Translations under genes and position numbers: made by a program
Shown: piece after piece, positions 4,671-56,206 of the stretch
How the letters are laid out: the number at the start of each line of letters is the position of its first letter
How positions within the stretch are numbered: position 1 is the first letter of the stretch
Source of the DNA: Acidobacteriota bacterium
Lineage (GTDB): Bacteria > Acidobacteriota > Vicinamibacteria > Vicinamibacterales > 2-12-FULL-66-21
NCBI GenBank assembly: GCA_046734955.1
Contig: JBKPSH010000074.1
Coordinates: forward strand, 8,698-72,697
Reading direction: 5' to 3'
Length of the DNA stretch: 64,000 nucleotides
Notes under the pieces: model-generated
Database searches by the model: none
Seen by the model: the letters and a program-made list of their open reading frames with translations, nothing else
What the model was told of the DNA's origin: nothing

Positions 4671-4762
4671 TTGGTGAATTGGTGAATTGGGCGACTCACT
4701 GACGCCGGGCGTCCTCAATTCACGATTCACCAACTCATAAATTCATCAATTCACCAATTCAT
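4671..4762. repeat. (GGTGAATT)n inverted-repeat hairpin between convergent genes (bidirectional terminator candidate)
   Basis: ttggtgaattggtgaattgg (4671-4690) is complementary to tcaattcacgattcaccaac (4715-4734). A further copy, tcaattcaccaattca (4746-4761), overlaps the stop of the minus-strand gene. The tract starts 1 nt after the stop at 4670. Confidence 0.7.
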
Positions 4763-5352
4763 TTCTGCACGTTCAGCGTCGCGTCCAGCTTGATCGTCTG
4801 TCCGCTCACCGGATCGGTCACCGCTGTCGATTGAGCCGTCTGGCCGTCTCGCATCATCAGCGTGAAAGATGAGTTGAAGTTGCGAAAGGCTGGCGCACCT
4901 GTGCTGGCGATCGTCGACCGGGCCGCGGGCTCGGCTTGATCCGGGTAATACACGGATGAATCGGTGATGGTAATTTGTATTTTGTAGAAACCATCGAGGG
5001 CGGTGGACGCGTTTACGTCGATATTCGTGCCGACATCGCGATAGTTATACGACTGCGTCTTTTCCCCATCCTTTCCGAAAATCGTCGACGGAACCGGAAT
5101 CTGTGTACCCAGCCGCAGAGTTGTCGGCGTCCTGCCATCGGTCGCCGTCGCCCAGAGAGTGTGCGGCACGCTGCTGATCTTCTTCTCCCCCTGGTAGCGC
5201 GAAAAAACGAGCGACAGTTTCAACGAGACGGGCGTCCCTGGACGAGCCTGTGCGGCCGGCTGCGCGTCCTGCGCGACAAGAGTTGTGGTCGTCAACACGG
5301 CAAGCGCGGCGGTCATGATTTTGAAAGCTCTGGTCACGGTTCTACTCCTCAT
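4759..5352 (-). CDS. Hypothetical secreted protein (last gene of an ECF sigma/anti-sigma operon)
   Basis: 197-aa ORF with a signal peptide (MTAALAVLTTTTLVAQDAQ). Beta-rich composition and no recognised motif. Lies 12 nt downstream of the anti-sigma ORF. Confidence 0.6.
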   Translation of the reverse strand: MRSRTVTRAFKIMTAALAVLTTTTLVAQDAQPAAQARPGTPVSLKLSLVFSRYQGEKKISSVPHTLWATATDGRTPTTLRLGTQIPVPSTIFGKDGEKTQSYNYRDVGTNIDVNASTALDGFYKIQITITDSSVYYPDQAEPAARSTIASTGAPAFRNFNSSFTLMMRDGQTAQSTAVTDPVSGQTIKLDATLNVQK

Positions 5353-5364
5353 TCTGAATACGCA

Positions 5365-5934
5365 CTACTGCCCGCCGTTCGGATCGACAGGAGTCAACAC
5401 GAGTTCGGGAACTTTTAATGGCTCGGCGATCGGCAGGGCGCCTGCGTGCGCGTCGGCGGCGATACTCTCGCCATTCGAAGCGTCCAGGATCGTATTCCTC
5501 GCAGCGGCCGCAAGGCGCTGGATCGCCGCGGTGATGGCTGGATCGATGATGACTTCTGGACTCGCCGTGGCCTCCATGGTAAGCGTGGATTGCTTGTGAA
5601 CGGCGGCCTGACGAGCAGCGATGATCACCGGCGCTATCCTGTGTTCCACTGGTAGCGGCGTGTCCGAACGCCTGACGATCTCAGCGTTCTGAGTCCCAGA
5701 CGAACTGTCATTCGTTCGAAGCACAGCCACGAAGATCAGCGCCGCGGCGGTCGCGATCGCCAATCCGATCCAGCCCCATCGCGTCGCACGAGATTCGCGA
5801 TGCTCGTCAATACGAGCGCGGACTCGTGCAGCGAACTCCGGTGACGGCTCGATCGACAGCAACCGCTGCAGGTCGGCCTCCGCCTCGGCGACAATGCGCT
5901 CGTCCAGTTCTGTCATTTGCTCGGTGCGAGACAT
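5365..5934 (-). CDS. Putative anti-sigma factor (single-pass membrane protein)
   Basis: 189-aa ORF that overlaps the 3' end of the sigma gene by 22 nt. Central TM segment WGWIGLAIATAAALIFVAVL. Called from position and topology only, without a motif. Confidence 0.5.
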   Translation of the reverse strand: MSRTEQMTELDERIVAEAEADLQRLLSIEPSPEFAARVRARIDEHRESRATRWGWIGLAIATAAALIFVAVLRTNDSSSGTQNAEIVRRSDTPLPVEHRIAPVIIAARQAAVHKQSTLTMEATASPEVIIDPAITAAIQRLAAAARNTILDASNGESIAADAHAGALPIAEPLKVPELVLTPVDPNGGQ

Positions 5935-6464
5935 TTCAGACTCTCCGCCAGCCCTTTTCGGGCCAGATACAACCGCGACTTGACGGTGCCTTCCGGTAAA
6001 TCGAGCAGTCGCGCCATCGTTCGAATGTCATGTCCCTCGATCGCGCCCAGGACGACGACGATTCGCAGCTTTTCCGGCAGCGTGTCGATCGCCTCCCACA
6101 AGCGCTCGGCGCGCTCACGTGATACTGCAACCTCTTCGGTCGACGGCGCGTGAGCGAATTCGACCGCCTGTTCCCGCGCCGTGCGACGCCGTTCGGATCG
6201 CCAGCGGTCGATCGCCAGCCGCCACGTCATCCGCATCAGCCACGCGCGGAACCGATCACGATCGCGGAGTTGAGTGAAGCTGCGATAGGCCTTCGCAAAC
6301 GCTTCCTGCGCGACATCTTCGGCGTCCTGCCGGTGGCGCAGGACCCCATACGCGACGCGGAAGGCCAGCGTGGTCGATTCGCGAAGGCGGTCCTCGAACT
6401 CCCGCTCGAGATCCTCGTCCAGGGTCACAAACGTCCCGGAAAACCCGCCGGCCCAGTCATTCAT
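5913..6464 (-). CDS. ECF-type RNA polymerase sigma-70 family factor
   Basis: 183 aa. Region 2 (AEDVAQEAFAKAYRSF...FRAWLMRMTWRLAIDRWR) and region 4 HTH (IEGHDIRTMARLLDLPEGTVKSRLYLARKGL). Confidence 0.85.
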   Translation of the reverse strand: MNDWAGGFSGTFVTLDEDLEREFEDRLRESTTLAFRVAYGVLRHRQDAEDVAQEAFAKAYRSFTQLRDRDRFRAWLMRMTWRLAIDRWRSERRRTAREQAVEFAHAPSTEEVAVSRERAERLWEAIDTLPEKLRIVVVLGAIEGHDIRTMARLLDLPEGTVKSRLYLARKGLAESLKCLAPSK

Positions 6465-6573
6465 TCAAGCTCCAGAAGCAAGACGGCATGGACACGGAGT
6501 GAGTTCAGTCACGTCATCTCACCCGTTTTTCTGACGGTTGAACTGGCGTCAAGGGACGACATATTCTCTAAGG

Positions 6574-7071: not shown

Positions 7072-8561
7072 AAAGGCAATCCGTTCTTTTACCTTTCCTT
7101 TTCCCTTTTGCCTTTTGCCTTTTCCCTTTCCTGTTACTTTGCACCCTCAATTCCGCCGGCTATCGCTACGGCGCCTCCGATCTCGCGTTCTACATCCCGG
7201 CGGCACTCGAACGGCTCGATCCGTCACTCTTCCCGCGGGACGGCGCGTTGATTGCGTCCCAGGCACGATTGACGATGATCGATGAGACGATCGCGGCGCT
7301 GTCGCGCGTCAGCGGACTCGGATTGCCGTCACTGTTCGCGACGTTATACGCGACGACGCTCGCGCTGCTGCTGGCCGGCGCACTTCTGCTTGGACGGTTC
7401 CTGTATCGGACCGAGGCGGCGGCGCTCGCATTCGTTGCCGCCCTGACCTTGCGCCACGCCATCGCGAAGTCGGGGACGAATACACTCGAGGGCTATTTCC
7501 ATCCGCGCCAACTCGCATTCAGTCTTGGGGTTCTGGCGCTGGTCGCACTGATGCAACAGCGCGTGCTCGTCAGCGCGGCGCTTGTCGTCGCCGGTGGTCT
7601 GCTTCATCCGACGACGGCGTTGTGGTTTTCGATCTGGATAGCGATTGCCGCGGCCGTGAACGATCGCCGGTGGCGGCTACCGATGATCCTTGTGGCAATC
7701 GCGGTGGTAATTGCAGCCGCATGGATGCTGGCGGCAGGACCGCTTGCGGGCCGGCTGGTCACGATGGATGACGAGTGGCTGGCGACGCTGGAGACCAAGG
7801 ATTATCTGTTCCCGCTCGAGTGGCCTCTGTATGCGTGGGGACTCAACCTCATTTATCCTCCGACCATTTTTTATATCTACAAACGGCGGTCGGCCATGGG
7901 CATTCTGGCGCCGGGGGAACGAGGATTGGTCTGGGGATGCCTGGCGCTCGTCGGCGTATTTGCAGTCGCGCTGCCGTTGAACGCGGCGCGACTCGCCCTG
8001 GTGATTCAACTCCAGGTACCGCGGGTGTTCTGGATGCTTGATTTTCTCGCCATTGCCTACCTGATCTGGTTGATCGCGGAAGACCTCAAGCCCTCGCCGC
8101 GGCGAGCGGGGATCGTCTGCCTCGTGATCGCGCTGGCATCGCTGACGCGCAGCGCGTACATCAAGTTCCTTAAGTTTCCAGATCGGCCAATCGCCGAAAT
8201 CGGCGTGCCCGACAACGACTGGGGGCGCGTGATGGCGTGGGTGCGCAGTACGCCTCACGACACCGGCTGGCTTGCTCACCCCGGACACGCCGTTCTGTAC
8301 GGAACGAGCGTCAGAGTTGCAGGGCAGCGCGACGTGTTTGTCGAAGGTATCAAGGACGCAGCAATTGGCATGTACGAACGCGACGTCGCCATCCGCACGC
8401 GCGATCGATTGCAAGAGCTGCGCGATTTCGACACGCTGACGCCCGAGCGCGCGACGTCGCTCGGCGCGCGCTATCAGATGGACTTTCTCGTTACGGGTCA
8501 AACTCTCGATCTTCCGGTGGCGTTCTCGAGCGGGCCACTGCGGGTCTATCGCCTGCGATGA
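7068..8561 (+). CDS. Polytopic integral membrane protein of unknown function
   Basis: 497-aa ORF with many hydrophobic segments. The first about 25 codons ([18 protein letters not shown]) are translated from the simple-sequence tract, so the true start is uncertain (alternative ATG near 7279). Confidence 0.6.
   Translation: MKRQSVLLPFLFPFAFCLFPFLLLCTLNSAGYRYGASDLAFYIPAALERLDPSLFPRDGALIASQARLTMIDETIAALSRVSGLGLPSLFATLYATTLALLLAGALLLGRFLYRTEAAALAFVAALTLRHAIAKSGTNTLEGYFHPRQLAFSLGVLALVALMQQRVLVSAALVVAGGLLHPTTALWFSIWIAIAAAVNDRRWRLPMILVAIAVVIAAAWMLAAGPLAGRLVTMDDEWLATLETKDYLFPLEWPLYAWGLNLIYPPTIFYIYKRRSAMGILAPGERGLVWGCLALVGVFAVALPLNAARLALVIQLQVPRVFWMLDFLAIAYLIWLIAEDLKPSPRRAGIVCLVIALASLTRSAYIKFLKFPDRPIAEIGVPDNDWGRVMAWVRSTPHDTGWLAHPGHAVLYGTSVRVAGQRDVFVEGIKDAAIGMYERDVAIRTRDRLQELRDFDTLTPERATSLGARYQMDFLVTGQTLDLPVAFSSGPLRVYRLR
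7092..7141. repeat. Pyrimidine-strand (CCTTTTS)n simple-sequence tract
   Basis: cctttccttttcccttttgccttttgccttttccctttcc lies directly after the DinB stop. It is the complement family of the GGSAAAA tracts at 21025, 23430 and 43479. Confidence 0.8.
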
Positions 8562-9544
8562 ACGATTACGTGCCCAAGCGTGGCCTGACGAACGGCCATC
8601 TCATGACAGTGTATTGCTGGGGAAAGCCGCGCAAGTTCCCGGCGTTACCCGCACCGACCGAACGCCACTTCGATACCGAACCCAAAACCCGCGTCCTCGC
8701 GCATTGCCATTGGCAACGCGATCCCGCCGCGCATCCGGCACTCATCGGCCTGCATGGTCTGGAGGGATCGAGCAGCGCGCACTACATGCGCGGCATGGCG
8801 GCGAAGGCCTACGGACGCGGATTCAACGTCCTCTTGCTCAATCAGCGCAATTGCGGCGGCACGGAATCGCTGTCCGCAGGGCTCTATCACTCGGGTCTCA
8901 CCGCGGATGCTGCCCACGTCATCAGCGAACTCCGACGCGACGGCATCGATCGCGTCGTCGTTGCCGGCTACTCGCTGGGAGGGAACCTGGCGCTCAAGCT
9001 CGCCGGCGACTACGGAAGCGCGCCACCGCCATCGCTGAAAGGCGTGTGTGCCGTGTCGCCCGTGATTGAGCTGGCCGAGTGTGTCAGAGCGCTCGACCGC
9101 CGTGAGAATTTCATTTACCAATGGAATTTTGTCAGAGGGCTGAAGGCGCGGATGCGCCGCAAAGCGGCCGCGCATCCGGGACGATTCCCGCTCGAACGGC
9201 TGTCGCAGGTGCGAACCGTTCGCCAATTCGATGAATACTTCACCGCACCGCACTTCGCGTTCGATGGCGCGGATGATTACTATTTTCGCGCGAGCGCGAT
9301 GCGCGTCGTCGATCGGATCCGCGTGCCGGCGCTCGTCATAACCGCCGAAGACGATCCGTTTGTCCCGGCTGAGATCTTTCGCGATCCACGCCTCCAAACC
9401 AATCCCCACATCAACCTCGTCGTCACCCGGCATGGGGGCCATTGCGGGTTCGTCGCCAATATGAACGGGGTGGACGACGGGTATTGGGCGGAGCGCCGGA
9501 TCGTTGAGTTTGCGGCCGCGGTGACGGAGAGCAGGAATCGCTGA
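8558..9544 (+). CDS. Alpha/beta hydrolase, YheT/ABHD1-3-like
   Basis: ORF track 8237..9544. ATG 8558 overlaps the upstream stop (ATGA). MNDYVPKRGLTNGHLMT..., GLEGSSSAHYMRG, nucleophile elbow GYSLGGN, C-terminal HGGHCGF. Confidence 0.8.
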   Translation: MNDYVPKRGLTNGHLMTVYCWGKPRKFPALPAPTERHFDTEPKTRVLAHCHWQRDPAAHPALIGLHGLEGSSSAHYMRGMAAKAYGRGFNVLLLNQRNCGGTESLSAGLYHSGLTADAAHVISELRRDGIDRVVVAGYSLGGNLALKLAGDYGSAPPPSLKGVCAVSPVIELAECVRALDRRENFIYQWNFVRGLKARMRRKAAAHPGRFPLERLSQVRTVRQFDEYFTAPHFAFDGADDYYFRASAMRVVDRIRVPALVITAEDDPFVPAEIFRDPRLQTNPHINLVVTRHGGHCGFVANMNGVDDGYWAERRIVEFAAAVTESRNR

Positions 9545-9737
9545 TCACTGATCACTGATCGTGAATCCCTTATCCTCGAATCGTCGAATCCCTAATCCTG
9601 GAATCGGCGAATCGCGCCATCGACATTCGATTCAGCGATTCGAGGATTCAAGGATTCATGGATCCACGGATTAGCGATTCGCGATCAGTGATTCAACGAT
9701 GAGCGATTCGCGATCAGTGACTAGTGATAAGGGATTA
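9541..9737. repeat. About 195-bp imperfect palindromic tract of short GATCAST / GAATCS units between convergent genes
   Basis: ctgatcactgatcactgatcg...gaatcccttatcctcgaatcg on the left. Right half carries the complements cgattcgaggattcaaggattca ... cgatcagtgactagtgataagggatt. Fills the whole gap between stops 9544 (+) and 9735 (-). Confidence 0.75.
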
Positions 9738-10433: not shown

Positions 10434-10438
10434 AGGTG

Positions 10439-10476
10439 TCAATGTTCAATGTTCAATGTTCAATGTTCAGTGTTCG
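10439..10476. repeat. (CAATGTT)5 heptamer array, left inverted arm of four-helix-bundle cassette 1
   Basis: tcaatgttcaatgttcaatgttcaatgttcagtgttcgg. Lies between the DUF72 start and the stop of the four-helix-bundle gene, overlapping that stop at 10467-69. Confidence 0.85.
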
Positions 10477-10853
10477 GAATCCTGAGAGCCGCGGCCGGGA
10501 TTAGATTCGGCAGTCCTTATGATTCTCGTCAGAATTTTCAGGATTTGGTGGCACTCGTCAATAAGCGGTTCTGCCTGCGCTCTTATTGTCGGCTTGGCGA
10601 ACGCGATCAAGCGTAGCCAGTAGCGCGTCTCTGCCGACTCCTTCCGAGCGATGGCCCCCTTTCCAATGAAGTCACGTTTGGTCTGTCCGGCATCAGCTTC
10701 TTCGAGGTTTGCGCCGATTGACGTGCCTGCATCCAGCAATTGTGAGCCGAGTCGTCGGATGACGTAGTCTGATTGAGCCAAGAGCCGGCAAAAATCGATG
10801 ATTTTGCAAGCGAACGTAAATGTGCGTGGTTGAATGTCGTGCGGTCGGGACAT
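10467..10853 (-). CDS. Four-helix-bundle protein (23S rRNA intervening-sequence protein / Avd-like family)
   Basis: ORF track 10467..10973. ATG at 10853 gives a 128-aa protein. Family signature FTFACKIIDFCRLL...LGSQLLDAGTSIGANLEEA...RKESAETRYWLRLI. Confidence 0.85.
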   Translation of the reverse strand: MSRPHDIQPRTFTFACKIIDFCRLLAQSDYVIRRLGSQLLDAGTSIGANLEEADAGQTKRDFIGKGAIARKESAETRYWLRLIAFAKPTIRAQAEPLIDECHQILKILTRIIRTAESNPGRGSQDSEH

Positions 10854-11001: not shown

Positions 11002-11110
11002 CATTGAACATTGAGCATTGAACATTGAACATTGAGCATTGAACATTGAGCATTGAACATTGAGCATTGAACATTGAACATTGAGCATTGAACATTGAAC
11101 ATTGAGCATT
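11002..11110. repeat. (CATTGAR)~15 heptamer array, right inverted arm of cassette 1
   Basis: 109 bp of cattgaa/cattgag units, the reverse complement of the CAATGTT array at 10439-10476. Generates the spurious MFNVQCS ORFs. Confidence 0.9.
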
Positions 11111-11244: not shown

Positions 11245-13674
11245 ATGCTCCACGACCTTCGGCATGCTGTCCGTGGACTTCTCAAGGCTCCCGGGTTCGC
11301 TGCGGTATCGATTCTCACGCTGGCGGTCGGGATCGGTGCAAACACGGCGGTGCTCAGCCTCGCCCGCGCTGTCTTCTTAACTCCTCTACCCTTCAAGGAT
11401 CCGGACAGGCTGGTCGCGATTGCTGAGCGGCGTCCGAGCAGCCGAACGAGCAACATCTCCATTTCCGGACATGAGTTCGCCGCGTGGAGAGAACAAAATC
11501 GGGTGTTCGAGGAGATCGCTCTCTACCACCCCACGGGGCTCAACCTCACAGGAGTCGGAGAACCACGAGCCGTCCAAGTGATCGAAGCGTCGGTCAATTA
11601 TTTGCCGATGCTTGGTTTATCGCCCGCGCTCGGACGCTGGTTCGATGACGGCGAGAACCGGGTTGCGATCGTGAGCGATCCGTTATGGCGGCAGCGTTTC
11701 GCTGGCGATCCGGCGGCCATCGGGCGGACGGTCACGTTAAACGATCAGTCCTACACAGTCGTCGGCGTCATGCCTCCCTTACCCCGGTCGTTGACGCCCG
11801 ATCTGGTCCTGCCGCTCGACATCCCTGAGCAGATACGCGCGGTCGGGCGGCACAATCTCAGCGCGTTCGCGCGCCTGCGTCAGGACGTGTCGCTCGAGGC
11901 CGCGCAGCGCGATCTCAGCGCGATTGCCGATCGTCTTGCCGCCGAGAGGCCGCGCGATAACACCGGTCACGGAGTCGCGGTGACGCCGCTGAGAGAAGAA
12001 ATGGTTGGCGAGTTCCGGCGCGCGTCGTGGCTCATGGTTGCAGCGGTGGGTTTCGTGCTGTTGATCGGTTGCGCGAACGTGGCGAACCTGCTTCTCGCGC
12101 GAGGCGCCAACCGTCAGCGCGAGATCGCGATCCGCACCGCGCTCGGCGCAGGCCGTGCGCGAATCGTGCGGCAACTGCTGGTCGAGTCTCTTGTCCTCGC
12201 CGTGCTGAGCGGCGCGGCAGGACTGCTGATGTCGGCGTGGATTATCGATCTGACGCCGACTCTGTCCGCCGTAAACATTCCGCTGCTCGAAACGACGAGT
12301 CTTGGATGGGCGGGTCTTGCGCTCGCCTCGGCTATCTCATTAATGACCGGACTCGCCGCCGGCATGGTGCCTGCCCTGCGTTCGTCGCTGGTCCGCCCTG
12401 GCTGGCTGCGCGAGAGTCATCAAGTCTCGGACGACCGAAGTGGACGAATGATGCGCAATGCGCTGGTCGCGGCGGAAGTAGGACTGACGCTCGTTCTGCT
12501 TGTCGGTGCCGGCCTGATGGTCACGAGCTTTGCCCGGCTCGTCGAAGTTGATCCTGGTTTTCGAACCCGTGACGTGCTGGTCGTCCCAGTTGATCTGCCC
12601 GCTTCCCGCTATGCCGAGGCGTATCAGCGTCGCGGTTTCTTCGATCGTGTCATCGGCAGCATTGAAGGAATTCCTGGAGTGCAGGCAGCCGGTGCAGTGT
12701 CGCACTTGCCGCTCGGCGGCGCCGACAACTGGATGCCCTTTCGAATGCTGGGCAAGCCGGACCCCGGACCTGGTCAGGAACCCTACGCGCCATTTCGTGT
12801 CGCAACGCCTCATTACTTTTCGGCGCTCGGCATTCCGCTTCGCCGCGGACGGTTGTTCAATGACGGCGACGCCCGCCAGTCGGTGCCGCTCATCCGATGG
12901 TTTCCGCAACAGCCGTATCCACCCGGATACGACAAGCCTCAAGCCACGCCTGTAGCTATCGTGAGTGAAAGCGCCGCGAAACAGTTCTGGCCCGGGAGCG
13001 ATCCGATTGGCCAGCGTATTCGTGTGATGCTCAGTCCCGACGTCACGATCGTCGGCGTCGCCGGCGACGTGCACCACAATGGTCTCGATCTTCCCAGCTA
13101 CCCTCACATCTATCTACCTCATAACCAGGAGCCGTGGGGTTCTGTGTCGCTCGTTGTTCGCACGGCGGTCACTCCCAGCGAACTCGCACCGGCGGTGCGT
13201 GAGCGCATACGCGCCGCGGATCCCGAATTGCCAATCTCGGTCCGAACAATGACGGATGTGATGTCCACATCGGTTGGCCGACCACGCCTCTACGCTGCAA
13301 TGACCGCGGTTTTCGGATCAGTGGCGCTTCTGCTCGCGCTGGTTGGAATCTTTGGCGTGGTGAGTTACGTCGCGACGCAACGCACGCGAGAGATCGGTGT
13401 GCGCATGGCACTCGGCGCTCAACGGCGCGAAATTCTCATGCTCGTCGTCGGTCAGGAGATGCGCCCGATTGCGGTGGGGATCGGTCTTGGCGTCCTGACC
13501 GCGGTCGCCATCACTCGTTTCATGGCGAAGCTGCTCTTTCAGGTCACGCCGCTCGATCCACTCACCTTCGCTGTCGTGACGACGTTGCTCGGTGTGGTGG
13601 CGCTGGTCGCCTGCTGGATCCCGGCGCGACGTGCGACTCACGTCGATCCGCTAACCTCGCTTCGCGCTGAATGA
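11245..13674 (+). CDS. ADOP family permease (MacB-like, duplicated FtsX domains), paralog 1
   Basis: 809 aa. N-terminus MLHDLRHAVRGLLKAPGFAAVSILTLAVGIGANTAV. Two FtsX-type 4-TM halves separated by large periplasmic domains. C-terminus DPLTSLRAE. Confidence 0.85.
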   Translation: MLHDLRHAVRGLLKAPGFAAVSILTLAVGIGANTAVLSLARAVFLTPLPFKDPDRLVAIAERRPSSRTSNISISGHEFAAWREQNRVFEEIALYHPTGLNLTGVGEPRAVQVIEASVNYLPMLGLSPALGRWFDDGENRVAIVSDPLWRQRFAGDPAAIGRTVTLNDQSYTVVGVMPPLPRSLTPDLVLPLDIPEQIRAVGRHNLSAFARLRQDVSLEAAQRDLSAIADRLAAERPRDNTGHGVAVTPLREEMVGEFRRASWLMVAAVGFVLLIGCANVANLLLARGANRQREIAIRTALGAGRARIVRQLLVESLVLAVLSGAAGLLMSAWIIDLTPTLSAVNIPLLETTSLGWAGLALASAISLMTGLAAGMVPALRSSLVRPGWLRESHQVSDDRSGRMMRNALVAAEVGLTLVLLVGAGLMVTSFARLVEVDPGFRTRDVLVVPVDLPASRYAEAYQRRGFFDRVIGSIEGIPGVQAAGAVSHLPLGGADNWMPFRMLGKPDPGPGQEPYAPFRVATPHYFSALGIPLRRGRLFNDGDARQSVPLIRWFPQQPYPPGYDKPQATPVAIVSESAAKQFWPGSDPIGQRIRVMLSPDVTIVGVAGDVHHNGLDLPSYPHIYLPHNQEPWGSVSLVVRTAVTPSELAPAVRERIRAADPELPISVRTMTDVMSTSVGRPRLYAAMTAVFGSVALLLALVGIFGVVSYVATQRTREIGVRMALGAQRREILMLVVGQEMRPIAVGIGLGVLTAVAITRFMAKLLFQVTPLDPLTFAVVTTLLGVVALVACWIPARRATHVDPLTSLRAE

Positions 13675-16174: not shown

Positions 16175-16178
16175 TCAG

Positions 16179-18594: not shown

Positions 18595-21018
<2,424 letters not shown>

Positions 21019-46575: not shown

Positions 46576-47841
46576 ATGTTCTGGCTGTCGGTCGCCGGGG
46601 CGGTCTTTCTCACCTGGCTGATCCTCGTGTTTCTGTTCACGCCGGGGATCAATTACCACTTAGCCGCACGGACGTCGATTCACGAACGTGACTTTCTTTA
46701 TACCCTGCAGTCGACGTGTCAGGCCGCGCTCCATCACGGCAACGCGGTGACGGTTTTCACCAACGGCGTCTCCTTCTATCCCGCAATGCTGAGCGCCATC
46801 GGCGGGGCGACACGCTCCATCAACATGGAGCTGTACATCTTTCAGCCCGGCAAGATCGCGGACCAGTTCGTCGCCGAACTCTCGGCCAAGGCACGTGCCG
46901 GTGTGACGGTGACGATCGTGGTCGACGCGATCGGCAGTCTCTCACTCTGGGGACGACCGGTCAGACGCCTCCGCCGCGCCGGCTGCCGGATCGAGTCATA
47001 TCAAAAGCTGCGCTGGTATTCACTCGCGCGGCTGAATAACCGAACACACCGTGAACTGCTAATCGTCGACGGAAAGGTTGCCTTCATTGGCGGCGCCGGA
47101 ATTGCCGACTGGTGGATTTATCCCTCGTTCAAGCGCATGCGCTGGCACAAACCATGGCGCGACACGATGCTGCGCATCGAGGGGCCGGTCGTCGCGGCGT
47201 TGCAGGGGGTCGCCGCTGAGAACTGGCTCGAGTGCTGCGGCGAAATTCTGGCCGGTGCAAAATACTTCCCCACTCTGACGCCGGCTGGCGACACGACCGC
47301 ATTCGTCGTCAAGAGCTCCCCCTCGGATCGCGCGACCGCCTCGCGCGTGACATTCCAGACGCTGATGGAAGGCTCCGATCATTCAATCCACATCAACACC
47401 CCGTACTTTCTCCCCGATCGATCGCTGCGGCGGGCGCTGATGGAGACCGCACGCCGCGGCGTGAAAATTACGGTGATCGTGCCCGGCCGGAACACCGATC
47501 AACGATGGGTGCGGCTGGCGAGCCGCCGCATGTGGGGTCGACTGCTCGAAGCAGGGGTTCGAATATTCGAGTACCGAAGCACGATGATTCACGCCAAGGT
47601 GCTGATCGTGGACGAACTCTGGTGCGTGCTGGGCACGACCAATATTGATAACCGATCATTCGAACACAACGACGAGGTGAATATCGCGATGCGGGATCGC
47701 GCACTGGCGATGAGACTGCTTGAAGACTACGTGCGCGACGTCACCGAGAGCGAAGAGATCACGCTGGAGCGCTGGAGGCGCCGGCCCTTCTGGGAAAAAG
47801 TCGTCGGTCCGTTCGTCTGGATTCTGGAGCGGCAGCAGTGA
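46576..47841 (+). CDS. Phospholipase D family protein (cardiolipin-synthase-like), first HKD motif degenerate
   Basis: N-terminal TM. Motif 1 reads THRELLIVDG (H-x-E instead of H-x-K, codon GAA 47053-55). Motif 2 is intact, IHAKVLIVDELWCVLGTTNIDNRS. Confidence 0.8.
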   Translation: MFWLSVAGAVFLTWLILVFLFTPGINYHLAARTSIHERDFLYTLQSTCQAALHHGNAVTVFTNGVSFYPAMLSAIGGATRSINMELYIFQPGKIADQFVAELSAKARAGVTVTIVVDAIGSLSLWGRPVRRLRRAGCRIESYQKLRWYSLARLNNRTHRELLIVDGKVAFIGGAGIADWWIYPSFKRMRWHKPWRDTMLRIEGPVVAALQGVAAENWLECCGEILAGAKYFPTLTPAGDTTAFVVKSSPSDRATASRVTFQTLMEGSDHSIHINTPYFLPDRSLRRALMETARRGVKITVIVPGRNTDQRWVRLASRRMWGRLLEAGVRIFEYRSTMIHAKVLIVDELWCVLGTTNIDNRSFEHNDEVNIAMRDRALAMRLLEDYVRDVTESEEITLERWRRRPFWEKVVGPFVWILERQQ

Positions 47842-48664: not shown

Positions 48665-48702
48665 TTGACACATAGATACCAAAGTGATATCACTTTGGTA
48701 TC
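48665..48702 (+). promoter_or_regulatory. Candidate promoter (TTGACA-17-TATCAC) overlapped by a perfect 28-bp palindromic operator
   Basis: ttgaca at 48665-70 and tatcac at 48688-93. Palindrome gataccaaagtgat|atcactttggtatc at 48675-48702. AT-rich island upstream of the SPFH-RHH pair. Confidence 0.5.
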
Positions 48703-48711: not shown

Positions 48712-48853
48712 GGTCCGTGTTAATCCGTGTTTTTCCGTGGCCCGTGAGTCCGTGTTCTTCCGTGGCCCGTGTTAGTCCGTGTTCTTCCGTGGCCCGGGTT
48801 TTTCCGTGGCCCGTGTGAGTCCGTGTTCTTCCGTGGCCCGTGTTAGTCCGTGG
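48712..48853. repeat. CCGTG-TTCTT-CCGTGG-type tandem array in the SPFH leader; its first 29 nt are the left inverted repeat
   Basis: Begins ggtccgtgttaatccgtgtttttccgtgg (48712-40), followed by about 6 more degenerate units up to the RBS (ggagg at 48860-64). Confidence 0.85.
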
Positions 48854-48873
48854 CGGCGAGGAGGTCGCACACC

Positions 48874-49743
48874 ATGATTCGCGAACGCGAAAACCCGGCG
48901 ATTCCGGGACTGCCTGTCCTCATCGGCGGCATTGCGCTCATCTTCGGCAGCATGTATCAGATCATTCAAGGCGCGCGCGAGCCGTCCGCCGTGATGATCA
49001 TCGGGTGGACGCTCGTGCTGATCGGATCGTTCCTGTTGCTCGCGGGCCTCTTCGTCGTCAATCCGAACGAAGGCAAGGTGCTCCAGTTTTTCGGCAACTA
49101 CGTGGGCACGGTGAAGCGGCCAGGACTCAGGTGGGCCAACCCGCTGTATACGAAGAAGCGAATCTCGCAGCGCATTCGCAACTTCGAGAGCGCGCGTCTG
49201 AAGGTCAACGACAACGAGGGCAATCCGATCGAGATCGCCGCGGTCGTCGTGTGGCGCGTCGTCGACACGGCCGAAGCGGTCTTCGAGGTCGACGACTACA
49301 ACAATTACGTCAAGGTGCAGACGGAGGCGGCGCTGCGCAACCTGGCGACCAGCTACACCTACGACGCGCACGACGATGCGCAGATCTCGTTACGCGGACA
49401 CACAACGGCCGTTGCCGAGCACCTCAAGAAAGAGATCCAGGAGCGGCTCGCACGCGCCGGCGTCGAAGTGATGGAAGCGCGAATCAGCCACCTCGCTTAC
49501 GCGCCGGAAATCGCGCACGCGATGCTGCAGCGTCAACAGGCAGGAGCGATCATCGCCGCACGGCAGCGAATTGTCGAAGGCGCGGTCGGGATGGTCGAAA
49601 TGGCGCTCGACATGCTGTCGCGGCGCGACATCGTCACGCTCGATAACGAGCGGAAGGCGGCGATGGTCAGCAATCTGCTGGTCGTGCTGTGCGGCGACAA
49701 ATCGACGCAGCCGATCGTCAACACCGGCACGATCTATCAGTAA
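48874..49743 (+). CDS. SPFH/Band-7 domain membrane protein
   Basis: ORF track 48850..49743. ATG 48874 follows ggagg. Two N-terminal TM helices, then the SPFH core ([28 protein letters not shown]...[13 protein letters not shown]). Confidence 0.85.
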
Positions 49744-49748
49744 ACGCC

Positions 49749-49961
49749 GTGGCCGAGCGGAAACCGTTCCTGCTGCGAATCGATCGCGAGATTCTCGACG
49801 CCGTTCAGCGCTGGGCAGACGATGATCTGCGCAGCCTGAACGGCCAGATCGAGTTTCTCCTGCGCCGGGCGCTGAAGGAAGGTGGACGCGAACTGAAAGA
49901 CGCGAGCCACGGAAGAACACGGATCAACACGGACCAGAGGGAGAAGAAGGAGAAAAGCTAG
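49749..49961 (+). CDS. Small ribbon-helix-helix (Arc/MetJ-like) DNA-binding protein
   Basis: ORF track 49689..49961. GTG 49749 lies 5 nt after the SPFH stop. Beta-strand PFLLRIDREI followed by two helices, LDAVQRWADDD and LNGQIEFLLRRAL. Confidence 0.6.
   Translation: MAERKPFLLRIDREILDAVQRWADDDLRSLNGQIEFLLRRALKEGGRELKDASHGRTRINTDQREKKEKS
49907..49935. repeat. Right inverted repeat of the SPFH-RHH cassette (inside the 3' end of the RHH ORF)
   Basis: The reverse complement of ccacggaagaacacggatcaacacggacc is ggtccgtgttgatccgtgttcttccgtgg, matching 48712-48740 at 27 of 29 positions. Confidence 0.85.
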
Positions 49962-52234: not shown

Positions 52235-52307
52235 TTAAGGGAAACACCGACGGGACGACCGTTTATTCCTTGTATTGTAAGTTCTTTCGGTCGTCGTCCG
52301 GCCTCAG

Positions 52308-52357
52308 CCGAAGGGCCCTTCGGCCTTCGGCGCCTTCCCTTTTCCCTTTTGCCTTTT
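52308..52357. repeat. 16-bp palindrome CCGAAGGGCCCTTCGG followed by a (CCTTTTS)n tract
   Basis: ccgaagggcccttcgg at 52308-23, then ccttcccttttcccttttgcctttt at 52333-57. Inside a 417-bp divergent intergenic region. Confidence 0.75.
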
Positions 52358-52651
52358 CGATGTCCGTCGACGGGGACGGCGCGATACCGGAGGATGACAG
52401 CGCGCCACAGTGGTTCGTGGTGTGATTGCGCGGTTTACTCGAATTCGCCACGCAGCACAGCAGGTACATGGCTTGCTTCGGGCCCCCTGGCGATCGTTTC
52501 GCTTCGTTGCCGGCACCCGATTCCGGGGACGCGAACGTTGCGACAACCGTCTCAGCTACAGTAACATCGGCGACGAGCAGCTGACGATCTACGTCGCCGC
52601 GTTCGCAGGAGCGGACTGGCAGTCTGTCTCGCTGTGCTTCCGAGGTGAAAT

Positions 52652-55600
52652 ATGCGTACGCGTCCGCCGCGCGGCTCTGTCGCGCCGATGGCCCTCACAC
52701 TCCTCGTCTTCGTCTTCCTGTTGGGCGGCCCTGTCGGGGAGGCCTTTGGCCAGACGCCGTACATCCCGTATTTCGGCAAGAACCGAATCCGCTACAACGA
52801 CTTCAAGTGGAACATCTACAAGACCGATCACTTCGAGATCTATTACTACCCGGAGATCGAGAAGCAGCTTGAACGGGTCACGTCGTACGCGGAAAGCGCC
52901 TATCAGCAGGTCAGCTCCGATCTCAAACACGATCTCGCATTCAAAGTTCCGCTCGTCCTCTACAAGACGGAAAGTGAATTCCAGCAACAGAACATCGAGC
53001 CTGGCGAACTGCCGGAAGGCGTGCTCGCGTTCGCCGAACCGTATCGCGACCGCATGGTGCTGCCGATTGACGAGCCGTCGGACGCGCTCTATCGCTTGAT
53101 CACGCACGAACTCACGCACATCTTCGAATTCGACATCATCCCGCGCTCGCTCCTCCACCGGCAGCTACCGTTGTGGGTGGATGAAGGCCTCTCCGACTAC
53201 ATGACCGGCTACTGGCAGCCGTTCGATCTGATGACCGTGCGCGACGCGGCGATTGCCGACATCATCCCGTCGATGAGCGATTTCGAAGGCGTGCAGTTCG
53301 CCGACGGCCGTCTCCCCTACAACCTCGGACACGCGGCGTTCGAGTTCATCGAATCGCGCTGGGGCAAGGAAGGGTTGCGGCAGTTCCTGTTCGCGCTGCG
53401 CAAAGCCGTCATCGGCGGCGGCGAGAGCGCTTATGAAGAAGCGTTCCGCCTGAAGCCGGAAGAGTTCGACGAGCAGTTCGACAAGTACTTGAAGGATCGC
53501 TTCAAGCCGTTCCGCGACAAGGAACGGCCGCAGGATTACGGACGGGATCTCGCTCCGAAACGGGGCAAGACGCAGTACACGGTGGTGGTGTCGATTGAAC
53601 CATCGCCGTCAGGCGATCTGATGGCGGTCGCGGCGGGCAACCGCAAGGATCAGGAACTGGACATCGTGCTGATGTCGACCAAGGACGGCAAGATTGTCGG
53701 CAACCTGACCAGCGGGTTCAACCAGAACCACGGCTACGAGTACATCGCGACGCCGGGCGGATTCCGGAATAATGCCGTCTCGTGGATGTCGTGGGCACCA
53801 GCCGGCGACCGCATCGCGTACTTCGCGCGAACCGAGAAGAACAAGACGCTCATCCTGCAGAATGTGGTGACGAAGAAGATTGAGACGCGCATCGAGCTGA
53901 AAACCGTCGACGGTCCCGAGTCGCCGGACTTCAGCCCGGACGGACGAGAGGTCGCGTTTGCCGCGATGCGCGGAGCCGTCGCCGACATCTTCGTCATCAA
54001 TCTCGAGACAAAAGAAATCCGCAACATCACCAACGATGCGTTCGGCGATTACGCGCCGACTTTCGCGCCCGACGGCAAGTCGATCATTTATCTCGCGCGC
54101 GTCAGTGGAAATGACAAGCTGTTTCGAGTCGATCTCGACACCGGCAAAAAGACCCAGGTCACCTTCGGCACCCACGACGACGGCGGCGTGCAGTTTATCG
54201 ACAACGACACGATCGTGTTTCCGTCGACCGCGACCGATCCCAATCAGCCGATCGAGCCAGAAGTGGCGCGCAACGGGAACATCTACAACATCTGGACGCT
54301 CAAGTTTGACAAGGACGGCAAGCCGGGCGAGCTCAAGCAGTATACGGATACGTTGACCGGGAACGTCTCGCCGATCGTGCTGCGCGATCAGAAGCCGGCG
54401 AAGATCGCCTTTGTGACGTACTACAAAGGCGAGTACGGCATCCACACGCTGCCGAGAGATGAGGCGCTGCACACGGTGGCGAACTCCGAGTTCGGGTCCG
54501 CGGAAGCCGGTGAGCCAATGGACTTCATCCCGCCGCAGACGCACACGCTCGTGCCGTCGAACATCCACAAGAAGGGCACGTTCGAAAAGCTGTTCCTCGA
54601 GGGACGGCCGCCGGTGGCGCTTGGCGTGACGAGCGGCGGCGACGTCTTCGGCGGCACCGAGGTGACGTTCAGCGACGTGCTCGGCGACAAGCAGTTCAGC
54701 ATGTTCGCGTCGTCGGTCTCGCAGTACCGGACGTTGAACTTCTCCTACGTCAACCTGTCACGACGGCTGCAGTACGCGGTGCAGGCGTATTCGCAGCAGC
54801 AGTTCTATTACGGCTACGATCCCGGATTGCTCTACGGATCGGAGTATGCGTTCGTGAGCCGCGATCAAGCCATCGCAACGCAGACCGCCCGGGGCGCCAC
54901 GATCTTCGGCATCTATCCGTTCAACCGCTACAACCGCGTCGAGCTCTCCGCCGGCGTCTACAACTACGAGCAGGGCTATAACGATCCGAACCTTCAGGCC
55001 GTGGCGGATCAATACCAGCAGGATCAGTACGGGCGTCTGTTGTTCAGCTCGGGTAGCTTCATGCCGTTGGGGGTTGCCCTCACACGTGAAACCACTGTGT
55101 TCCGTGAGTATGGCCCGCTTGCCGGCAGCACGATGCGCCTCGGTTACGAGTACGCACCGTCGGTCGGCAGCTTCCTGTCGCGACAGACCGCCGACGTCGA
55201 TGCGCGCTACTACCTGCGACTCGCGACCAACGGCGTCCTGGCATTCCGCGCGCGCGGGTTCAAGAGCTGGGGTGAGTTCCCCGGCTACATGTACTTCGGC
55301 GGCAACTCCGAGCTGCGCGGCTACGACTACCTCGAGTTCCTTGGGAACAAGGCGTTCTTCCTCAATACCGAACTGCGGTTCCCGCTGATCGAAGCGGCGC
55401 TGACGCCGCTCGGTGTCATTGGCGGACTTCGCGGGATCGCGTACGCGGGCCTCGGCGCGGCGGGTTACGAAGGCATCCCGATGAACGTCTGGACGCACGA
55501 TCCGATCACGGTCACCCCGCTGCTCGGCTTCCGTCCGAACTACGAGACGTTCACCTACGATCCGATATATGGCCAGCCGCAGCAGATCAACGGCTTTAAG

Positions 55601-55807
55601 CTGGTAGACGGCCGCGCGTCATACGGGCTCGGACTTGAAACGTTCGCCCTTGGCTTCCCCATCCACTTCGACTGGTCATGGCGAACCCTGATGAACAAGG
55701 ACTACGAAGATTACGTGTTTGCGTATCAGGGAATCCAGGAAGGCGAGTCGGGCAGCAAGTGGTTCAGGAAGCCCCGATTCACGGTGTGGATTGGATACGA
55801 CTTTTAA
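52652..55807 (+). CDS. Large outer-membrane protein: N-terminal HExxH peptidase-like domain, PD40/TolB-type beta-propeller repeats, C-terminal Omp85-like beta-barrel
   Basis: Signal peptide. ITHELTHIFEF (HExxH). PD40-type repeats (DFSPDGREVAFAA, APTFAPDGKSIIYLAR). The C-terminal about 400 aa show an alternating beta pattern ending ...RFTVWIGYDF. Confidence 0.7.
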   Translation: MRTRPPRGSVAPMALTLLVFVFLLGGPVGEAFGQTPYIPYFGKNRIRYNDFKWNIYKTDHFEIYYYPEIEKQLERVTSYAESAYQQVSSDLKHDLAFKVPLVLYKTESEFQQQNIEPGELPEGVLAFAEPYRDRMVLPIDEPSDALYRLITHELTHIFEFDIIPRSLLHRQLPLWVDEGLSDYMTGYWQPFDLMTVRDAAIADIIPSMSDFEGVQFADGRLPYNLGHAAFEFIESRWGKEGLRQFLFALRKAVIGGGESAYEEAFRLKPEEFDEQFDKYLKDRFKPFRDKERPQDYGRDLAPKRGKTQYTVVVSIEPSPSGDLMAVAAGNRKDQELDIVLMSTKDGKIVGNLTSGFNQNHGYEYIATPGGFRNNAVSWMSWAPAGDRIAYFARTEKNKTLILQNVVTKKIETRIELKTVDGPESPDFSPDGREVAFAAMRGAVADIFVINLETKEIRNITNDAFGDYAPTFAPDGKSIIYLARVSGNDKLFRVDLDTGKKTQVTFGTHDDGGVQFIDNDTIVFPSTATDPNQPIEPEVARNGNIYNIWTLKFDKDGKPGELKQYTDTLTGNVSPIVLRDQKPAKIAFVTYYKGEYGIHTLPRDEALHTVANSEFGSAEAGEPMDFIPPQTHTLVPSNIHKKGTFEKLFLEGRPPVALGVTSGGDVFGGTEVTFSDVLGDKQFSMFASSVSQYRTLNFSYVNLSRRLQYAVQAYSQQQFYYGYDPGLLYGSEYAFVSRDQAIATQTARGATIFGIYPFNRYNRVELSAGVYNYEQGYNDPNLQAVADQYQQDQYGRLLFSSGSFMPLGVALTRETTVFREYGPLAGSTMRLGYEYAPSVGSFLSRQTADVDARYYLRLATNGVLAFRARGFKSWGEFPGYMYFGGNSELRGYDYLEFLGNKAFFLNTELRFPLIEAALTPLGVIGGLRGIAYAGLGAAGYEGIPMNVWTHDPITVTPLLGFRPNYETFTYDPIYGQPQQINGFKLVDGRASYGLGLETFALGFPIHFDWSWRTLMNKDYEDYVFAYQGIQEGESGSKWFRKPRFTVWIGYDF

Positions 55808-55827
55808 GCTGATCTGCGGTGACGTAT

Positions 55828-55856
55828 AAGGGCCAGAGTTGAACACTCTGGCCCTT
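55828..55856 (+). terminator. Stem-loop after the large OM protein gene
   Basis: aagggccagag-ttgaaca-ctctggccctt: 11-bp stem with a 7-nt loop, 20 nt after the stop. Only a weak T-tract follows. Confidence 0.5.
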
Positions 55857-55869
55857 CGAATGTACGCTG

Positions 55870-56124
55870 GTGTTACTGGCCGTGCCTGAGAAACGCCGCT
55901 GCAACGATCTCGTCGGGCTTCTCGCGGATTTCGTCGAGCATCATCTGCCGCCTCAGGTACACGCCGATCTCGAGCGCCACCTCGCCGCGTGTCCCCGCTG
56001 CGTTGCTCAGTTGAAAACCTACAAGTCGACGGTCTCGCTGCTCCGTTCCATCAAGGAAGACGACTTACCGCCAGAGCTTCGATGCACGCTCAAGGCATTT
56101 GTGGACCGGAATTGTAAAAACTGA
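55870..56124 (+). CDS. Small zf-HC2 (ZAS-type) putative anti-sigma factor, no adjacent sigma gene
   Basis: 84 aa containing HLAACPRC (H-x3-C-x2-C). Alternative (GTG) start. Confidence 0.55.
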   Translation: MLLAVPEKRRCNDLVGLLADFVEHHLPPQVHADLERHLAACPRCVAQLKTYKSTVSLLRSIKEDDLPPELRCTLKAFVDRNCKN

Positions 56125-56206
56125 AATTGCTGAATGTTGATTGCTGAGTGCTGATTGAACGCGACCCGTCAATCAGCACTCAGAATTCAGCAATCAGCAT
56201 TTTCAG
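56125..56206. repeat. Inverted repeat of TGCTGAK heptamers (hairpin, terminator candidate)
   Basis: Perfect 15-bp stem ctgagtgctgattga (56144-58) / tcaatcagcactcag (56169-83) with a 10-nt loop, flanked by further imperfect heptamer pairing. Starts 1 nt after stop 56124. Confidence 0.75.

Follow-up and report, generated by a model that had tools for sequence, protein, structure and literature searches.

The 64-kb window analysed here, the whole stretch of 64,000 nucleotides taken from contig JBKPSH010000074.1 of a soil bacterium, carries at its gene boundaries a set of tracts built from tandemly repeated units of mostly 7–8 nt. Using Tandem Repeats Finder (TRF) together with direct reading of the units, we located all 16 tracts described in an earlier note on this DNA at, or within a few bases of, their reported positions, with TRF periods of 7, 8 and 10 as well as composite periods of 17, 27 and 44, and copy numbers of 2.5–15.6. 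The tracts fall into three classes: five local hairpins, two inverted pairs that each enclose a PF05635 gene, and, for the remainder, mostly single arrays. The nearest proteins and loci belong to Vicinamibacterales metagenome-assembled genomes (MAGs; Acidobacteriota subdivision 6), in line with the previous description of an Acidobacteria-like, ADOP-bearing genome, five ADOP genes being present in the window.

The two inverted pairs with distant arms, 10439/11002 and 23430/24046, had been listed before; overlooked were the PF05635 genes that both pairs enclose, which tie the tract system to 23S-rRNA intervening-sequence (IVS) elements. The two cassettes, each with one gene for an intervening-sequence protein (IVP), are composed as follows, strands being given for the genes.

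10434–10476: short arm (TCAATGT)5 of the IVP1 cassette, supplying the IVP1 stop codon and ending 5 nt from the DUF72 start codon (TRF)
10467–10853, minus strand: IVP1, a PF05635/TIGR02436 four-helix-bundle gene (23S-rRNA intervening-sequence protein, Avd-like; Pfam 1.8e-14, TIGR02436 1.3e-21)
11002–11110: ADOP-side long arm of the IVP1 cassette, (CATTGAR)15.6 (TRF score 176)
23430–23467: upstream arm (AAAGGSA)n of the IVP2 cassette, beginning at the base after the ADOP stop codon (TRF)
23600–24028, plus strand: IVP2, a PF05635/TIGR02436 gene in the loop (Pfam 2.4e-11, TIGR02436 2.4e-17, PDB 2RLD 7.6e-14)
24046–24083: downstream arm (CCTTKTS)n of the IVP2 cassette (TRF, blastn, duplex energy)

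In each cassette the inverted arms lie 0.5–0.6 kb apart. The calculated arm–arm RNA duplex amounts to −50.7 kcal/mol for IVP1, compared with −8.9 ± 3.1 for shuffled partners, and to −52.6 kcal/mol for IVP2 (−27.9 ± 3.9 for shuffled partners), and the flanks of IVP1 yielded an inverted-alignment score of 64, the highest among 891 control genes. The IVP1 cassette is located between the DUF72 and ADOP genes and the IVP2 cassette after the last ADOP gene, where synteny with L081–L083 (labels of this form denote loci of other genomes) stops precisely at the last base of the downstream arm, as determined by blastn. The nearest solved structure of the window IVP proteins is 2RLD. The five ADOP genes (MacB_PCD plus FtsX, ~800 aa) are arranged in tandem at 11245–23429, and PF05635 cassettes repeatedly adjoin ADOP genes, both in the window and in relatives.

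In the IVS of Coxiella, a PF05635-family open reading frame (ORF) is bordered by a 28-bp stem cleaved by RNase III, with variable-copy tandem heptamers (GACAGAT) at the cleavage site, beside the start of the ORF (PMC4990558). The window cassettes share with the rRNA IVSs of Coxiella burnetii and Leptospira (PMC4990558) the gene family, the variable-copy heptamers beside the ORF, the insertion within a host transcription unit and the complementary borders that form a stable stem. Unlike rRNA IVSs, however, the window elements lie between protein-coding genes and not in 23S rRNA helix 45, a scan of the window with Rfam (gathering threshold) and for tRNAs giving no match to rRNA or any other family; their arms are long arrays of 4–17 units, and most elements are ORF-less, only the two cassettes encoding a PF05635/TIGR02436 protein.

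The same architecture surrounds PF05635 genes elsewhere. We sampled these by a metagenome scan, look-ups of homologues on long contigs, plasmids of named organisms, a blind scan in which the flanks of 891 genes were compared for inverted similarity, and a Pfam check on the top matches of this blind scan, covering Acidobacteriota, Cyanobacteriota, Bacteroidota, Spirochaetota and Chloroflexota as well as unclassified metagenome contigs. Each of the 27 non-redundant PF05635 genes that we scored, from six phyla, lies between inverted tandem 6–8-mer arrays, which are usually flush with the stop and start codons of the neighbouring genes. In the flank inverted-alignment test every one of the 27 scored at least 29, and 25 exceeded the 99th percentile of the 891 controls (35); only seven controls reached 39 or more, three of these being PF05635 genes themselves (4/888 other genes). 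The plasmid-borne cassettes comprise:

Nostoc flagelliforme plasmid: arms (AATTCAAA)4
N. punctiforme plasmid: arms (GTCGGAR)n
Anabaena cylindrica plasmid NC_019772.1 (L106), 154903–156623: arms (AGTAAAA)n, between cas2 and cas1
Planktothrix and Gloeocapsa plasmids: inverted arrays
Treponema plasmid: arms (GAAAGNG)n
Bernardetia plasmid (L108): arms (GATTAGT)17
Chlorohelix plasmid: inverted arrays

Chlorohelix (L109) and Gloeocapsa (L111), members of unrelated phyla, carry the cassette in one and the same place, with a DUF1156 gene on one side and a Swt1-family HEPN gene on the other, and have related arm units (GATTTTR and ATTTTAG). Metagenome cassettes were also observed within operons, for example flanked by a pair of ABC ATPase genes or by genes for ATP synthase (assigned by reading the sequence on either side), and in L088 each cassette arm combines an array with one half of a GC-rich core, the design of the gene-less hairpins in relatives. 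The cassette at 2960–3440 of L094 is accompanied by an imperfect ~33-nt direct duplication of the upstream gene's 3' end (..AAACTGATGAACGGGGAGGTGGAGGT.. / ..AAGCTGATGAGCGGGGAGGTGGAGGT..), which may represent a target duplication or a duplicated hsdS end. The '23S rRNA IVP' has appeared among CRISPR-associated genes (PMC10910872), and such PF05635–CRISPR associations may stem from insertion of the cassette and not from function. The large PF05635 family is still described as functionally uncharacterised (bioRxiv 10.1101/2024.02.27.582315).

To quantify the tracts in the window, we used 56 genes predicted by a codon-usage caller, which leave 7.4% of the window intergenic, and the 29 intergenic regions (IGRs) with a length of 25 nt or more, with 200 dinucleotide-preserving shuffles as the null. 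Arrays occupy 872 nt in 14 of the 29 IGRs, compared with a mean of 11.8 nt (maximum 86) in the shuffles, where on average 0.46 and at most 3 IGRs carried arrays. The tracts are likewise tied to gene boundaries, since arrays with a period that is not a multiple of three cover 19.4% of the intergenic and 0.22% of the coding bases, an 89-fold difference. With head-to-tail units, over-representation relative to composition and a mainly intergenic location, they belong to the long simple-sequence repeats (unit 5–11 nt; Mrazek 2007 class). Complementary pairing in the window exceeds chance as well: an inverted partner within 250 nt accompanies 7 of the 18 arrays, compared with 0.0 for shuffled flanks, the internally palindromic tract at 46124–46159 coming on top of these. 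The sister assembly GCA_046724295.1, three contigs of which cover ~38 kb of the window at 99.3–99.8% identity, spans 12 of the listed tracts, all with identical copy number; long-read MAG contigs and finished plasmids from cultured strains have the architecture too. An assembly artefact is thereby ruled out. One sister contig terminates within an array-flanked cassette, as expected of short-read assembly.

The position relative to genes is less uniform than the earlier note had it, according to which almost all tracts begin 0–3 nt from a stop codon. About 10 of the 16 lie within 6 nt of, or overlap, a stop codon, whereas two are 14–17 nt away and four are found at start codons or promoter regions (11002, 40229, 48712 and 52333). 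Many tracts constitute the entire gap between two genes, and in five cases the stop codon, as read from the sequence, is a TGA inside the repeat unit; tracts often supply the stop codon because TGA units of period 7–8 close all three frames within ~3 units.

Four tracts previously listed as single arrays (4671–4762, 9541–9737, 46124–46159 and 56125–56206) each represent the two arms of one hairpin. The statement that most tracts can pair holds for five local hairpins and the two gene-enclosing pairs, whereas at least five arrays are partnerless and structure-free in RNA folding (7092, 21025, 40229, 41975 and 52333; z ≥ 0), and the kilobase-distant pairing partners turned out to be copies of the same unit family. 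The local hairpins are:

4671–4762: (GGTGAATT)n / (AATTCACC)n arms (TRF; minimum free energy (MFE) −36.5 kcal/mol, z −7.1), the whole convergent IGR between a BNR/sortilin-like gene (stop at 4670) and a minus-strand gene (stop at 4759)
9541–9737: 190-nt imperfect hairpin of GATCACT / GAATCSC / GATTAGT-type units (MFE −90.3 kcal/mol, z −7.7), the convergent IGR of the hydrolase and DUF72 genes, both stop codons lying inside the hairpin ends
43479–43549: (GGCAAAA)n / (TTTTCCC..) arms (z −3.2 to −3.9), the whole convergent IGR of the ABC ATPase and RRM-protein genes; an 18-bp stem and then a U-rich tail when read on the minus strand
46124–46159: perfect 36-nt palindrome (AATTGGTG)2(AATTCACC)2 (TRF; terminator scan, 16 pairs)
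56121–56206: (TGCTGAK)n / (MTCAGCA)n arms, then UUUU (MFE −52.2 kcal/mol, z −8.06), beginning in the stop codon of the small zf-HC2-like ORF 55870–56124 (plus strand)

The hairpin at 4671–4762 reached an inverted-partner score of 31, compared with a shuffled maximum of 18, and is the same in the sister assembly. The minus-strand ORF 46143–46652 ends with ..KKLVNW and its stop codon inside the palindrome, whereas the tract-free orthologue in L002 ends with ..KRERK. The single arrays and related copies are:

7086–7141: single (CCTTTTS)n array, 14 nt past the DinB gene stop, with no local partner (TRF)
21023–21066: single (GGGAAAA)n array in the 53-nt gap between two ADOP genes (MFE −2.6 kcal/mol, z 0.0)
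40229–40381: single (TCCGTGTTCTTCCGTGG)-type array, directly at the start codon of a minus-strand LiaF-like gene and upstream of the aminopeptidase gene (TRF)
41975–42015: single (CCTTTTS)n array, the whole 42-nt convergent IGR after the aminopeptidase gene (TRF)
48712–48854: (CCGTGTTCTTCCGTGG)-type array with a conserved promoter/operator on one side and the ribosome-binding site (RBS) of the Band_7 gene on the other (TRF)
49907–49935: CCGTGTTCTT-family copy in complement, within the part of the small RHH ORF 49689–49961 (plus strand) that encodes its C-terminal tail
52333–52358: short (CCTTTTS)n array in a divergent IGR, directly after the GC-rich hairpin 52307–52324 (TRF)

Within the window, the GGSAAAA family displays no consistent strand bias when read against the upstream gene's mRNA (7092 and 41975 pyrimidine; 21025, 23430 and 43479 purine). 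The arrays at 40270–40385 and 48712–48860 lie 8.4 kb apart and have irregular variants in common, in the same order; they are therefore copies of one another and not independent expansions. The CCGTGTTCTT-type arrays at 48712–48854 and 49907–49935, the latter encoding the RHH ORF tail (SHGRTRINTDQ..), form an inverted same-family pair ~1 kb apart with a possible duplex of −62 kcal/mol. A third cassette around the Band_7 gene and the RHH ORF was rejected, the enclosure being missing in L002, L003, L019 and L035, which indicates a coincidental same-family copy.

We compared the orthologous IGRs of relatives in 79 loci around the aminopeptidase gene (40412–41971). Families turn over among related genomes, a comparison suggested in the earlier note: the units differ, and tracts come and go at orthologous junctions. 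At the junction of the aminopeptidase and a 184-aa gene, (CCTTTTS)n is present in the window (42 nt), L002 and L003, L011, L042 and L043 have different unit families there, and L004 and L005 have 0 nt. The array at 40229–40381 is missing at the orthologous site in L003, and the palindrome at 46124–46159 is found with a core in L003, is also present in L004 and L042, and is missing in L002. Upstream of the Band_7 gene, the −35 box, a palindromic operator and the RBS are conserved, the spacer arrays varying in unit and length.

At the convergent junction of the ABC ATPase and RRM-protein genes, by comparison, one dominant hairpin was present in 12/12 genomes (z −2.0 to −8.7), its arm units being non-homologous across genomes (GGCAAAA, GGTAAAT, GAAGGAA, GAATGCC and GGTCTTY). 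Most of these genomes have a GC-rich core (e.g. AAAAAGGCCGGCG...CGCCGGCCTTTTT) flanked by an A-tract and a U-tract, the shape of a classical bidirectional terminator, with lineage-specific tandem arrays lengthening the stem, and in the window the arrays form the whole stem. The earlier proposal that tracts replace classical terminators thus fits the window at this junction, where arrays took over the entire stem, but not most relatives, which keep the core and in which the arrays only extend it, nor those relatives of other junctions that have no hairpin and whose genes abut or overlap. The 190-nt hairpin between the hydrolase and DUF72 genes is shared, in the same family, by the window and L112 and is not found in L113, L117 and L099; the two genes overlap in L113 and L099, and a short GC-rich hairpin is all that L117 has. 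Since relatives without the hairpin have abutting or overlapping genes, the tracts are dispensable insertions and not obligatory terminators.

Around the IVP genes, the arm unit tracks the protein clade. IVP2-like proteins (at least 60% identity) always have AAGGGAA-type arms, at three different junctions, and in IVP1-like cassettes at the DUF72/ADOP junction the arms shift from TCAATGT via TGAATGC to GAATGCC as protein identity drops from 82% to 52%, both arms changing together. Compared with L112, L113 and L117, the window carries the inter-arm segment of the IVP1 cassette in inverted orientation, with collinear flanks and the long arm still on the ADOP side. At the same junction, L100 carries a one-armed array and no gene, which suggests a possible relic and a route by which single arrays arise. 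Within the 79 aminopeptidase loci, no IVP gene was detected by phmmer with the window proteins, the blind flank scan finding a divergent one in L055. Searching the fetched loci for GGTGAATT and GATTAGT units beside IVP genes returned only GATTAGT in Bernardetia (L108); the single GATTAGT match in L112 lies in the hydrolase/DUF72 hairpin, outside the IVP arms.

On the shortest timescale, the hairpin at 56121–56206 has only two differences between the window and the sister assembly, 56148 G>T and 56179 C>A. These positions are partners in one base pair, constituting a compensatory G-C to U-A change. We estimate the chance of this coincidence at ~1e-4, based on ~20 substitutions in ~10 kb outside a recombinant patch, where the two strains diverge by ~0.2%. 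Copy number was polymorphic between L113 and L114, which are 99.4% identical and differ by 16 nt in one arm.

The density of arrays and the fraction with an inverted partner varied among groups:

Window: 2.8 arrays per 10 kb, 7/18 with an inverted partner
Close Vicinamibacterales: 2.2 arrays per 10 kb, 38/78 with an inverted partner
More distant Vicinamibacteria: 0.3 arrays per 10 kb, 1/9 with an inverted partner
Blastocatellia / Pyrinomonadaceae: 2.1 arrays per 10 kb, 24/30 with an inverted partner
Other phyla: 0.7 arrays per 10 kb, 1/20 with an inverted partner

In the Gemmatimonadales MAG contig L072, 23% of the intergenic sequence consists of tandem 7–10-mer arrays, among them (AGACGGAA)n and, oppositely oriented, (CCGTCTTA)n, and the array phenomenon may extend to the Gemmatimonadota.

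Based on these data we lean, with moderate confidence, towards the reading that the tracts are arms, or one-armed leftovers, of IVS-like palindromic intergenic elements that extend or replace terminator stems. The data show that each arm is a tandem array of a 7–8-nt unit and that two inverted arrays pair into a 20–90-bp stem, which may hold just a short loop, a terminator-like core that is GC-rich and has an A-tract and a U-tract, or a whole PF05635 gene. They also show that elements are situated exactly between genes, are gained, lost and replaced rapidly at a given gene boundary and are copied between loci, their arms staying complementary as the unit drifts and the inter-arm segment being able to flip. 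In transcripts, the paired arms would give long duplexes; at convergent gene ends these may extend or stand in for bidirectional intrinsic terminators, and around PF05635 genes the stems may act like the terminal stems of 23S-rRNA IVSs and be cut by RNase III, by analogy to the latter. We propose that such removal of the insert from the host transcript would make insertion at a gene boundary tolerated. Array length would change by slippage, arms would stay complementary either through selection acting on the stem or through templated correction of one arm by the other, and loss of one arm, or of the loop together with one arm, would leave single arrays.

Several observations weigh against this reading. 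Termination and RNase III cleavage at these stems are both steps that we infer. On the IVP sense strand, no excess of G-U pairs was detected in the 27 arm pairs (26 G-U vs 47 A-C mismatches; p = 0.02 in the opposite direction, with an ambiguous alignment register within arrays), so that there is no specific pointer to RNA-level selection on this strand, and pairing or homogenisation at the DNA level fits the mismatch spectrum equally well. Domain searches revealed no transposase, RAYT or reverse transcriptase among the window's annotated proteins, and no clear target-site duplications surround the window elements. The single arrays in the window are without consistent orientation relative to transcription, and the PF05635 sample is skewed towards relatives of the window's two genes and plasmids. 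Finally, gene-less hairpins could derive from gene cassettes, or genes could equally have become lodged in pre-existing hairpins.

Two further explanations have to be weighed. Tracts could be neutral, slippage-prone period-7/8 repeats in unconstrained sequence, without structure-dependent role or mobility; passages of PMC4679880 and PMC4692102 that refer to Mrazek 2007 attribute the heptamer excess in bacteria to slippage, and the rapid unit turnover, the presence or absence of tracts among relatives, the five single structure-free arrays without orientation bias and the copy-number polymorphism between near-identical loci are all in line with it. We nevertheless consider slippage on its own unlikely. 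It does not predict inverted partners in the window, where none is expected by chance, nor their frequency in close relatives and Blastocatellia compared with other phyla, the hairpin kept at one junction in 12/12 genomes, the compensatory double change between two near-identical strains, the paralogous distant arrays with common irregular variants, or the specific association of arrays with one gene family.

Alternatively, the tracts could be the intrinsic (bidirectional) terminators or 3'-end stabilisers of this lineage, with repetitive stems, the PF05635 link being incidental. Five hairpins are indeed located at gene 3' ends, three of these at convergent pairs, and a pattern scan of the window detected no classical terminators above chance, its only intergenic matches, 43543–43504 (minus strand) and 46124–46159 (plus strand), both being repeat-armed hairpins. 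Cores of terminator shape, i.e. a GC-rich stem-loop with a U-tract and, if bidirectional, an A-tract, are kept in L019, L021, L003, L016 and other relatives. The GGGAAAA...CCCTTTT arms are always purine-first, resulting in U-rich sequence after the stem on both strands, and the GGGAAAA-type unit resembles the junction of a stem base with the A-tract or U-tract. The remaining window hairpins have AT-rich repetitive stems with weak or no U-tracts. Arrays at start codons, promoter regions and 5' untranslated regions (UTRs; 11002, 40229, 48712 and 52333), gene-flanking arms 500–600 nt apart, which cannot form an intrinsic terminator, and relatives that manage without tracts at abutting or overlapping genes all speak against this explanation, and the enclosure of 27/27 PF05635 genes is not incidental; we therefore doubt it.

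It is very improbable that the tracts are contingency (phase-variation) loci whose copy number tunes promoter spacing or 5' UTR length of adjacent genes: the arrays at 40229–40381 and 48712–48854 do lie between a promoter/operator and a start codon, with lengths of 140, 60 and 30 nt among relatives, and heptamer simple-sequence repeats drive phase variation in Haemophilus (PMC12721329), but 0/12 covered tracts differ in copy number from the sister assembly (0.2–0.7% diverged), most tracts are at 3' ends or between convergent genes, and the neighbours are housekeeping and transport genes, not surface antigens. Hardly any likelihood is left for a role of non-B DNA (G-quadruplex or triplex) at the level of the DNA itself, which has been proposed for the GGGAATC repeats of Xanthomonas, shown to form G-quadruplexes in vitro (PMC4692102): (GGGAAAA)n/(CCCTTTT)n does constitute a purine/pyrimidine mirror repeat, with 3–4 GGG runs in some copies (21025–21066), but most families (CAATGTT, GGTGAATT, TGCTGAK, GATCACT and CCGTGTTCTT) are without G-runs or purine/pyrimidine asymmetry, the common trait being inverted pairing.

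Reading the tracts as arms of IVS-like elements can be extended into a wider proposal, which we regard as speculative and rather less probable than not to hold: PF05635 genes with their inverted heptamer arms may form one widespread class of semi-autonomous elements, of which gene-less arrays and hairpins, including those of the window, the Xanthomonas GGGAATC arrays and the short tandemly repeated repetitive (STRR) sequences of cyanobacteria, would be non-autonomous derivatives, the Avd-like protein acting in trans on arms of its own family in copying, maintenance or processing.

Heptamer arrays, rRNA IVSs and inverted-paired intergenic architecture are each already known. The analogy to STRR sequences drawn in the earlier note proved apt, arrays of tandem 6–8-mers with the same architecture flanking PF05635 genes on Nostoc and Anabaena plasmids. 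STRR sequences are, like the window tracts, intergenic arrays of tandem heptanucleotides with several families per genome; they differ in host phylum, heterocystous cyanobacteria instead of Vicinamibacterales, and in unit sequence, and they are described as direct arrays without emphasis on inverted pairing. The STRR1–3 consensus units CCCCAGT, TTGGTCA and CAACAGT are not among the window units (GGSAAAA, CAATGTT, GGTGAATT, TGCTGAK and others). Over-represented 5–11-nt repeats, heptamers above all, occur in many bacteria, according to passages in PMC4679880 and PMC4692102. The claim of novelty stands in part: we found no description of such arrays in Acidobacteria in the literature searched, whereas inverted-paired heptamers at gene boundaries are known from Xanthomonas, where GGGAATC arrays form 70–75 convergent inverted pairs per genome, with unknown function (Rehm et al. 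2015, PMC4692102). Those repeats are likewise intergenic tandem heptamers of a high-GC genome, mostly by ORF ends and with a position kept between species and a variable length; they consist of one dominant G-rich unit read as G-quadruplex-forming, whereas the window has at least six unrelated families, most without G-runs.

The link to PF05635 is not drawn in PMC4692102, a table of which lists an array at XCC0516 that overlaps the start of this gene; PMC4990558 refers to the S23p pentamer of X. campestris, for which a structure was solved (Lin 2006), and the family membership of PDB 2GSC (Xcc0516) rests on PMC10053308 and PMC4990558. From the window IVPs, 2GSC was not reached by a single sequence or a two-sequence profile. 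The S23p pentamer we take to be XCC0516. A general link between PF05635 and heptamer arrays was not found beyond the Coxiella IVS in the literature searched, which was incomplete.

TAACTGA repeats of marine Beggiatoaceae, cyanobacteria and Bacteroidetes, proposed to function in translational regulation (PMC4679880), resemble the window tracts as intergenic heptamers of patchy phylogeny with a stop-containing unit, often directly beside start codons, and differ in their single dominant unit and in forming 169 direct sets vs 1 inverted (PMC4679880). REP, BIME and REPIN sequences are also extragenic palindromes at gene 3' ends or within operons, with several dispersed multi-copy families and proposed roles in mRNA stabilisation and termination; REPs, however, are unique-sequence palindromes of 20–40 nt, whereas the window arms are tandem units. 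REPINs are mobilised by RAYT transposases (IS200/IS605-like TnpA), whereas no transposase domain was seen among the annotated proteins of the window, where the associated gene encodes a four-helix-bundle protein. Compared with miniature inverted-repeat transposable elements, the inverted arms are present, and no consistent direct duplication flanks the window elements. A diversity-generating retroelement does not fit, no reverse transcriptase domain being found in the window or in the called genes beside 17 looked-up loci.

Intergenic heptamers have been catalogued as STRR sequences since ~1990, as long simple-sequence repeats since 2007 and in Xanthomonas since 2015, with no accepted origin or function. 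The window and its relatives join this puzzle to that of the uncharacterised PF05635 family, the arrays enclosing the PF05635 gene as the stem encloses the ORF in rRNA IVSs. The gene–array link turns an old descriptive puzzle into testable predictions, and, if the proposal of a semi-autonomous element class were true, it would provide a cause for the heptamer excess and a function for the PF05635 family. On the practical side, cassettes within operons (cas2/cas1, atpA/atpG) can yield spurious 'guilt-by-association' calls, interrupt short-read assemblies and alter protein C-termini.

Further features lie beside the tracts. A GAATCGC/TAATCGC-type tract at 890–925, of the same family as 9541–9737, directly follows the stop codon of the TPM-phosphatase gene and precedes a small GC hairpin, CCGCCTTCAGGCGG. 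An additional GC-rich repeat family, GCGAGCGA / CCCCCGAGCGAG, outside the earlier list, is located in IGRs at 13713–13745 and 36277–36316 and also occurs in IGRs of L004 and L005, the latter having (CCGCGAG)n. The RRM_1 protein gene at 43550–43930 (minus strand) has a Gly-rich tail derived from a GCC-type repeat (43604–43678), with the repeat hairpin at the gene 3' end; RRM proteins are uncommon in bacteria. At 48665–48702, upstream of the Band_7 gene, a TTGACA −35 box adjoins the perfect 28-nt palindrome GATACCAAAGTGATATCACTTTGGTATC, both being kept in L002, L003, L013, L019 and L035 amid varying arrays; the palindrome is probably a repressor operator, and the small RHH ORF 49689–49961 further downstream is a candidate for its regulator. 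The plus-strand ORF 55870–56124, missed by the gene caller, encodes 84 aa with the look of a CxxC-containing anti-sigma factor (zf-HC2-like; ..HLAACPRCVAQLK..). Finally, inside the gene at 52652–55807, 58 of the 78 differences to the sister contig L119 fall within 480 nt (53179–53659), and 48 of these 58 affect third codon positions, a pattern suggestive of import or recombination of this allele segment.

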